DNA of 64,000 bases from positions 21,377 to 85,376 of the forward strand of contig JBCBZG010000018.1 in NCBI GenBank assembly GCA_039815465.1, read 5' to 3'. Made by a program: the position numbers and the translations under genes. Below, piece after piece: positions 15,266-15,883 of this stretch. Source of the DNA: Pseudomonadota bacterium. Lineage in GTDB: Bacteria; Pseudomonadota; Alphaproteobacteria; Rhodobacterales; Rhodobacteraceae. The notes under the pieces were generated by a model. The model saw only the letters and a list, made by a program, of their open reading frames with translations, searched no databases and had not been told where the DNA came from. Within the stretch, counting starts at the first letter, position 1, and each line of letters opens with the position of its first letter.

Positions 15266-15883
15266 GTGTCAAATGGTAATTCATTCAACGAGGGTGGCCT
15301 CGTTATCAACCTGTCTCGAAACGCGGACGGGTCGGTGCTGACAAAGGGCGTTGTTTTGACGCTCAGCGCGGGCATCATCCGCTATAAACTGCGAGATGAC
15401 CCATTTCTCAGCGAGGTCTTCGAAACGGGATTCCTGCACAAGCTGGAGGAGCTCATCCACCGCGCCGGGCCTGCTGGCCGCGTGTTCTCTGCACCCGATG
15501 AAATCATCCGCGCGGGATCGGTGGTCTTGTCAGGCGCGCGCATCATCTTTGACGGGGCCGATAACGGGCTCGAACTGATCATGATCCGCTTCAAACGCGT
15601 CTTGGGGGAGGTGGGCGACCTTTTCACCGGGCAGGCCGCGCCCAACCTCCACGCCCCTCAGGCCGCGCCTGCGTCTCAGGCGCTCACATACGAACATCTT
15701 TGCCTGCCGATCCTTAATTTCGCGGCCTATCTCGAAACCGAGCTCGCGGATAATTCCGACACGCTGCCGCCGGAAACGCGCACCGTCATCCGCCGCCTGC
15801 ACCAGGCGATTGACCTTGCGCGTCACGACTTCGACCGCCTCGATTACGAGATAAAGCGCAGCGCGATCTCGAGCGCCGCCTAG
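15266..15883 (+). CDS. hypothetical protein: unknown N-terminal domain + HisKA-like DHp hairpin, no ATPase domain
   Basis: 205-aa ORF with a GTG start and GGGG 8 nt upstream. C-terminal [57 protein letters not shown] resembles an H-box plus second DHp helix. Codon usage matches neighbouring genes after an AT-richer 5' end. Confidence 0.7.

Follow-up and report, generated by a model that had tools for sequence, protein, structure and literature searches.

What does a small gene do that stands directly downstream of ctrA, and does that position make it part of the CckA-ChpT-CtrA phosphorelay? The gene in question is an open reading frame (ORF) of 205 amino acids, located at 15266-15883 on the + strand and starting with a GTG codon, within a 64-kb stretch of Rhodobacteraceae DNA (64,000 nucleotides of contig JBCBZG010000018.1, hereafter the window). 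A first-pass annotation, made from the sequence alone, read the C-terminal part of its product as a dimerization and histidine phosphotransfer (DHp) hairpin with phosphoacceptor His144, and proposed the protein as an accessory of the CtrA phosphorelay. Most of what that annotation described is borne out by the sequence, but as to function the results presented here point elsewhere. The gene appears to be controlled by CtrA and not to belong to the phosphorelay, and we infer that it encodes a CtrA-regulated, non-phosphorylatable sensor/dimerization adaptor of a CheB/CheR methylation module. We give this reading, in which both regulation and mechanism are predictions from sequence, a probability of about 0.6.

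The ORF is a real gene, as is evident from its coding-type codon bias, its distant full-length homologues and a confident AlphaFold model. GC content at the first, second and third codon positions (0.65/0.42/0.74) is of the coding type and similar to that of ctrA (0.59/0.35/0.77), and the 456 bp upstream of the ORF are devoid of codon-position GC periodicity. Searches of Pfam and NCBIfam matched no family, in agreement with the initial view that the protein as a whole belongs to no recognizable one. Homologues were retrieved with phmmer, run exhaustively over 1.84 billion cluster representatives, which gave 46 matches at E<1e-3, six of them at E<1e-10, with a best E of 1.5e-19. Word-indexed searches, whether with the single sequence or a profile, returned almost nothing outside the same organism, and the family was seen by exhaustive phmmer only. 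Nearly all matches are 180-300 aa long and align over essentially their whole length; one of 1205 aa (P0036) proved to be a spurious repeat protein and was excluded. The resulting alignment of 45 sequences, the ORF and 44 distinct homologues, defines an unnamed family of proteins of about 200-250 aa. R108, F109, G114 and P148 are nearly invariant in it and R39, D78 and N/D151 strongly conserved; the window protein retains R39, D78, R108, F109, G114, P148 and N151. None of the 45 members matched a Pfam family, and the only named one comes from the cultured Rhodobacterales species Pontivivens insulae, where it is annotated as a 'hypothetical protein' (WP_116203182.1). The family is alphaproteobacterial and uncharacterized, and the window protein is cytoplasmic. 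For the analysis of genomic context, a metagenome locus (L092) was found with a narrower family alignment, while locus L091 was rejected as independent evidence, being 100% identical over 1930 nt and thus from the same organism.

Across this family it is a CheB-CheR fusion gene, and not ctrA, that is conserved as a neighbour. In all nine homologue loci with enough flanking sequence, the family gene adjoins one whose product, 830-1094 aa long, fuses CheB_methylest, CheR_N and CheR. The fusion gene lies in tandem, upstream of the family gene, in L001 (66-3296), L002 (170-2707) and L008 (1540-4431), and is divergently oriented in L006, L092, L095, L096, L097 (Pontivivens insulae) and L098. The fusion proteins begin directly with the methylesterase, with no receiver domain ahead of it, and continue with CheR_N, CheR, a NEEL-repeat coiled coil and PAS_10-type domains; no kinase, ATPase or other output domain was found in them. 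CheB/CheR fusions of this kind correspond to the KEGG K13924-type 'CheBR-PAS' proteins, many of which, as annotated, carry a histidine-kinase output. The fusions neighbouring the family differ in lacking one, and the window protein is itself no such enzyme. Literature searches on CheB-CheR fusions linked to CtrA yielded no description of the family.

Three side observations concern these loci. In the fusion proteins of L001, L002 and L008, the coiled coil consists of near-perfect heptads (EELETSNEELQSTNEELQSSNEELQATNEEL...) that by eye resemble a string of Glu-Glu methylation sites. In L096, a Pseudomonadota metagenome-assembled genome, two family paralogues (670-1386, minus strand, and 5001-5657, plus strand) flank a single CheB-CheR-PAS fusion gene (1490-4774, minus strand); one is divergent and preceded by a perfect CtrA box, while the other adjoins the fusion gene on its downstream side and shares its orientation. 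In Pontivivens insulae (L097, 8856-10073), the family gene is followed by genes for a 242-aa protein without a Pfam match and a 152-aa receiver-only response regulator. This arrangement might give the module an additional output; it was seen in this one locus, which itself has no CtrA box at one mismatch or fewer.

A second conserved feature is found upstream of the gene. Both CtrA-type boxes of the first-pass annotation were recovered. The first, TTAAACTCCCGTTAA (14996-15010, + strand), lies 270 bp upstream of the start codon; the 64 kb contain no other perfect TTAA-N7-TTAA (0.04 expected; 4 of 100 shuffled sequences reach one). The second, a TTAG-N7-TTAA site with one mismatch at 15184-15199 (TTAGGGTTTTATTAAC; 15184-15198, TTAGGGTTTTATTAA; + strand), lies 82 bp upstream of the start, a distance that matches the boxes of several homologues. 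The region as a whole is AT-rich and promoter-like. Among 12 independent loci, the window included, eight carry a perfect TTAA-N7-TTAA within 300 bp upstream of the family gene and two more a one-mismatch site. The homologue boxes stand 31-130 bp ahead of the annotated starts, with 8 of 10 sites at 77-130, and several end in TTAACC. Perfect boxes are found at -119 (L002), -101 (L006), -31 (L008), -130 (L010), -113 (L092), -77 (L096) and -38 (L098), and none of these loci holds a second perfect site. L001 and L095 have a one-mismatch box only, the one in L095 (TTAG..TTAAC at -79) being the same variant at the same distance as the second box of the window. Against a background of six sites in 777 kb of Rhodobacterales DNA, the probability of finding at least seven of 11 loci with a perfect box, as calculated before L098 joined the set, is 1.2e-16.

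In the tandem loci the box lies 3' of the stop codon of the fusion gene, and therefore belongs to the small gene. This assignment fits transcriptome data of Phaeobacter inhibens, in which expression of a chimeric CheB-CheR gene is unchanged in ctrA, cckA and chpT knockouts while che genes are down up to 32-fold (PMC12363192). On the evidence of these motifs, the family gene would be switched on by CtrA~P along with the motility and chemotaxis regulon. Its product would then dimerize through the C-terminal hairpin and serve a CheB/CheR-type methylation module, either as a signalling adaptor or as a regulatory partner.

If the family travels with CheB-CheR fusion genes, how did the window copy come to lie beside ctrA? 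The ctrA loci of 80 Rhodobacterales species were compared by tblastn synteny analysis and scanned with a hidden Markov model of the family. The order mnmA-sciP-ctrA-ligA-recG is kept in 77 of the 80, with ligA directly 3' of ctrA, and the ctrA-ligA gap in these 77 loci has a median of 81 bp (range 5-1494), versus 1220 bp in the window. None of the 80 loci holds a member of the family, so that the ctrA synteny expected of a relay component was not borne out, and none of the 77 gaps contains a CtrA-type box, perfect or with one mismatch. Because the junction is stable elsewhere and the family absent from it, the ORF and its 456-bp upstream region stand out as a lineage-specific insertion: judging from this comparison, about 1.1 kb of DNA, comprising a gene and its own CtrA-box promoter region, is inserted between ctrA and ligA. 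Nearness to ctrA would thus reflect a landing place and not a conserved operon relationship, and, given the absence of boxes from the other gaps, the boxes would either have arrived with the inserted gene or have evolved for it.

No nucleotide relatives, mobile-element hallmarks or meaningful flanking repeats were found for the gap sequence of the window. A 10-nt direct repeat, AAGCGCAGCG, has exact copies at 14808-14817 (at the ctrA stop codon) and 15854-15863 (close to where the ORF ends). The two copies are separated by 1046 bp and roughly bracket the insert, but the repeat is at chance level (about one is expected in 1.45 kb). Other exceptions to the conserved order were also seen. The one large ctrA-ligA gap among these loci, in a Roseovarius sp. 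(L032), holds an unrelated 357-aa gene on the opposite strand (6047-7120, minus strand), L019 is rearranged (5772-7618), and in L019 and L023 ligA does not lie within 5 kb of ctrA. From these cases the ctrA-ligA junction appears to be occasionally taken by insertions or rearrangements.

An insertion of this kind could also have left behind a mere passenger, that is, a horizontally acquired gene parted from its CheB-CheR partner, functionless or decaying, with its CtrA boxes carried along. The gene is indeed a lineage-specific insertion in a core housekeeping block, no partner gene is found within the 64 kb, and the only near-identical public sequence comes from the same organism. Against decay stand an intact reading frame of coding-type codon bias, the retention of all family-conserved residues, and the preservation of both boxes and the AT-rich promoter-like region; the partner, moreover, could lie elsewhere in the genome. 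We regard a passenger as quite unlikely.

AlphaFold2, run with the family alignment, gave a model with a predicted local distance difference test score (pLDDT) of 88.3 and a predicted template modelling score of 0.71 for the whole chain, which upheld the arrangement originally proposed, in which a P/A/Q-rich linker joins an N-terminal domain of no recognized family to a hairpin of helices and an ATPase domain is absent. The N-terminal part, an alpha/beta domain (residues 11-119; 15296-15622, + strand), is modelled with pLDDT above 90 in both whole-chain and domain-only predictions (90.5 for the domain modelled alone) and consists of three strands (11-18, 24-32, 37-41), two helices (48-51, 54-67) and three further strands (73-83, 86-97, 103-113). 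The linker (residues 120-135; 15623-15670, + strand) has no regular structure, a pLDDT of 62-79 and a variable sequence in the family alignment. The C-terminal hairpin (helices 136-162 and 169-204; 15671-15877, + strand; pLDDT 82-95) carries the family motif (A)LExhhhPLxN(F), with Glu143 encoded at 15692-15694, His144 at 15695-15697 and Pro148 at 15707-15709. The ORF stops at residue 205, directly after helix 2, and there is no HATPase_c match. In a Foldseek search of the PDB with the whole chain, nothing was found at E<=1e-3; the top matches were the sensor-DHp parts of LOV histidine kinases (8a3u, 6ph4, 4gcz), with probabilities of 0.66-0.95 and template modelling (TM) scores below 0.3. The best PAS match of the N-terminal domain was 3fc7_B (TM 0.47/0.57, probability 0.77, E 0.6), and no PAS family in Pfam matched the ORF or the 45 members. 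On the model, the N-terminal domain remains an unassigned alpha/beta, sensor-like domain that is only loosely PAS-like, and the overall architecture is DHp-like.

The model also bears on the start codon. A public gene call from the same organism (P0001, Logan SRR22824269; 182 aa, 99% identical) uses an alternative GTG at 15335. We favour the 205-aa form, since with a start at 15335 the protein would lose strand 1 of the domain conserved in the family; automated annotation probably mis-starts the gene.

Is the hairpin, then, a phosphoacceptor? His144 is present in only 2 of the 45 family sequences, the column being mostly D, R, E, Q or N. By contrast with this variable position, P148 is found in 44 of 45 sequences, N/D151 in 42 and E143 in 23. 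An hmmscan against Pfam revealed no HisKA, HisKA_2, HisKA_3, HWE, Hpt or HPTransfase domain, whether for the ORF at a cutoff of E<=1 or for the 45 members at E<=0.01, NCBIfam gave no phosphotransferase match for the ORF, and a search of the family profile against all PDB sequences, many kinases and phosphotransferases among them, returned no kinase or phosphotransferase at E<=10. The C-terminal part of the family was also compared by hhalign with a small alignment of HisKA hairpins. The latter comprised eight sequences, three from kinases in the analysis data (including two H-box segments from 50834-58440 of the window) and five supplied as background, so that the outcome is a lead rather than a rigorous result. 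The similarity is weak (54 columns, P 0.0013, probability 17%). In it, the phospho-His column is occupied by Glu143 instead of His144 and the HisKA proline is matched by Pro148, the ExxxxPL of the family being in register with HExxxPL. By this alignment, the H-box drawn by eye around His144 is one residue out of register. The score of 18.7 exceeds that of every shuffled control (150 by column, 150 by block), but the reversed alignment still scores 15.3, indicating that much of the signal is that of a generic amphipathic hairpin. Homology of the hairpin to HisKA is possible. The predicted helices and the LOV-kinase fold matches speak for the DHp likeness first proposed; no significant match was obtained at either structure or profile level.

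Read from the alignment, a phosphoacceptor histidine is not a feature of the family. Lacking both this residue and an ATPase domain, the protein cannot serve as a histidine phosphotransfer protein, and phosphotransfer via His144 appears very unlikely. This bears directly on the proposal that the gene encodes a DHp-only protein which takes part in the CckA-ChpT-CtrA relay by phosphotransfer or as a phosphatase-type partner, its phosphoacceptor being His144. A predicted helical hairpin, the position next to ctrA with CtrA boxes upstream, and a weak in-register profile similarity to HisKA hairpins would all fit such a component, but a phospho-His column occupied by Glu or other residues, the lack of any kinase or phosphotransferase profile match in the ORF, the 45 members or the PDB sequences, and the absence of the family from the ctrA loci of 80 genomes make it highly improbable. 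What survives of the phosphorelay accessory is its link to CtrA, in the form of a conserved upstream box.

The protein can also be set against known systems. With HisKA-type kinases (PF00512; for example the LOV kinase structures above, including YF1), the protein shares a sensor-DHp layout, an alpha/beta sensor-like domain followed by an antiparallel two-helix hairpin; it differs from them in three respects: the His is not conserved (23 of 45 sequences have Glu in the aligned column), an ATPase domain is missing, and no member of the family matches Pfam. ChpT, a member of the CtrA pathway, and Spo0B are likewise small soluble proteins built around a DHp-like hairpin and without kinase activity. 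In these, however, the phospho-His is conserved and a pseudo-ATPase alpha/beta domain is C-terminal, whereas the window protein carries its alpha/beta domain at the N terminus, its family has no conserved His, and neither HPTransfase (PF10090) nor Hpt matches, in line with the earlier judgement that the protein is not ChpT-like. A conceptual parallel would be DivL, a pseudo-kinase in which Tyr replaces the phospho-His and which regulates CckA: both would be non-phosphorylatable DHp proteins tied to the CtrA circuit. DivL, though, is large, contains several PAS domains as well as an ATPase domain, and is recognizably HisKA/HATPase_c; the phmmer and Pfam searches detected no sequence relationship between it and the window protein.

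Alternatively, the hairpin might act as a pseudo-DHp decoy. It would pair as a heterodimer with the DHp of a genuine kinase, for instance CckA, or dock a receiver domain (that of CtrA, a CheY-like protein or the receiver-only protein of Pontivivens), and so titrate signalling without phosphotransfer, as a feedback on the CtrA pathway independent of CheB-CheR. In kinases, the helix-1 segment around and below the phospho-His contacts the receiver in histidine kinase-response regulator complexes, and the most conserved stretch of the family, LExhhhPLxNF in helix 1, corresponds in the hhalign register to just this HisKA segment, with the proline aligned. A receiver-only gene lies two genes downstream in Pontivivens, a CtrA-box promoter would close a feedback loop, and the gene stands alone here, without a CheB-CheR neighbour. 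On the other side, the DHp similarity is weak, with a reversed control nearly as good, and the receiver neighbour occurs in only one locus. The consistent neighbour, moreover, is a CheB-CheR fusion that has neither a DHp nor a receiver domain. We consider a decoy rather unlikely, and return to the adaptor of a methylation module.

Within such a module the small protein could have a more specific part. The fusion proteins lack a kinase, and the family might supply their missing output or substrate, as a soluble dimeric hairpin protein that is either reversibly methylated itself, for instance at the semi-conserved Glu143, or a reader of methylation on the NEEL coiled coil of the fusion. By eye, the hairpin contains no EE or QE pairs and no match to the methylation consensus of methyl-accepting chemotaxis proteins. 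We rate this version unlikely; if true, it would describe a CheA-independent, methylation-based signalling pathway under CtrA control, the CtrA-controlled half of which would have moved right beside ctrA in the source genome.

Several observations weigh against a CtrA-regulated adaptor of a CheB/CheR module. The window contains no CheB-CheR fusion gene or remnant of one within its 64 kb, as assessed by tblastn, and the adaptor function is a prediction from gene neighbourhood. Regarding CtrA, both binding and CtrA-dependent expression are suggested by motif conservation; L093/L094 and the Pontivivens locus L097 have no box at one mismatch or fewer. In the window itself, the perfect box is unusually distant (-270) and the box at the usual distance is mismatched. 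As to structure, the DHp likeness is weak, as set out above, and the N-terminal domain modelled alone has no significant fold relative in the PDB (no match at E<=1e-3).

As first described, the gene lies between ctrA and ligA; at this locus mnmA (minus strand), sciP, ctrA, the ORF, ligA and recG follow one another. ctrA (14096-14809, + strand) matches the Rhodobacterales CtrA family NF045991 of NCBIfam with 422 bits, sciP (13728-14006), upstream of it, matches NF051866 with an E of 3e-36, and ligA (16030-18213, + strand) lies 3' of the ORF. Housekeeping genes make up the wider surroundings, with bamA, skp, fabZ, lpxA, lpxI and lpxB upstream and genes for a GluQ-type synthetase, TrmFO and an enoyl-CoA hydratase downstream. 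The 89-bp spacer between sciP and ctrA contains a one-mismatch CtrA-type box of its own, GTAACGTCGCATTAA (14033-14047). Perfect boxes are found at the same place, about 70-80 bp before ctrA, in L023, L065 and L080, and the site in the window is a possible ctrA autoregulation site.

Downstream of ctrA, a terminator-like hairpin with a U-rich tail (14850-14895, + strand) has a folding energy of -26.2 kcal/mol (z -4.3), which none of 200 shuffled sequences equalled, and is followed by UUCCUUAUUUU. Its presence suggests that the ORF forms a separate transcription unit. Between the stop codon of the ORF and the start of ligA (15884-16029), no terminator-like fold was found (z -0.26 and +0.86), so that transcription from the CtrA-box promoter might continue into ligA-recG. 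A sigma-70 scan found no promoter, and Rfam gave no match in the window. Elsewhere in the window, a cluster at 50834-58440 encodes two HisKA-type kinases with the H-box AHEIKNPL (52150-53289 and 54725-57028); it resembles ntrB-ntrC-ntrY-ntrX, as assigned by motif and position alone.

For the study of the CtrA circuit, the locus is instructive as a negative case: a place beside ctrA together with a single His in a hairpin of helices is not enough to identify a member of a phosphorelay. The gene is instead a new predicted member of the CtrA regulon, which can be checked in existing Rhodobacterales transcriptomes. CheB-CheR fusion proteins are widespread in annotations and almost unstudied, the literature searches having given passing mentions only, and no earlier description of a dedicated small partner protein of such fusions was found there. 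The two-gene module that the family appears to form with them would provide a way to ask whether CheB/CheR-type methylation can signal without the CheA kinase.

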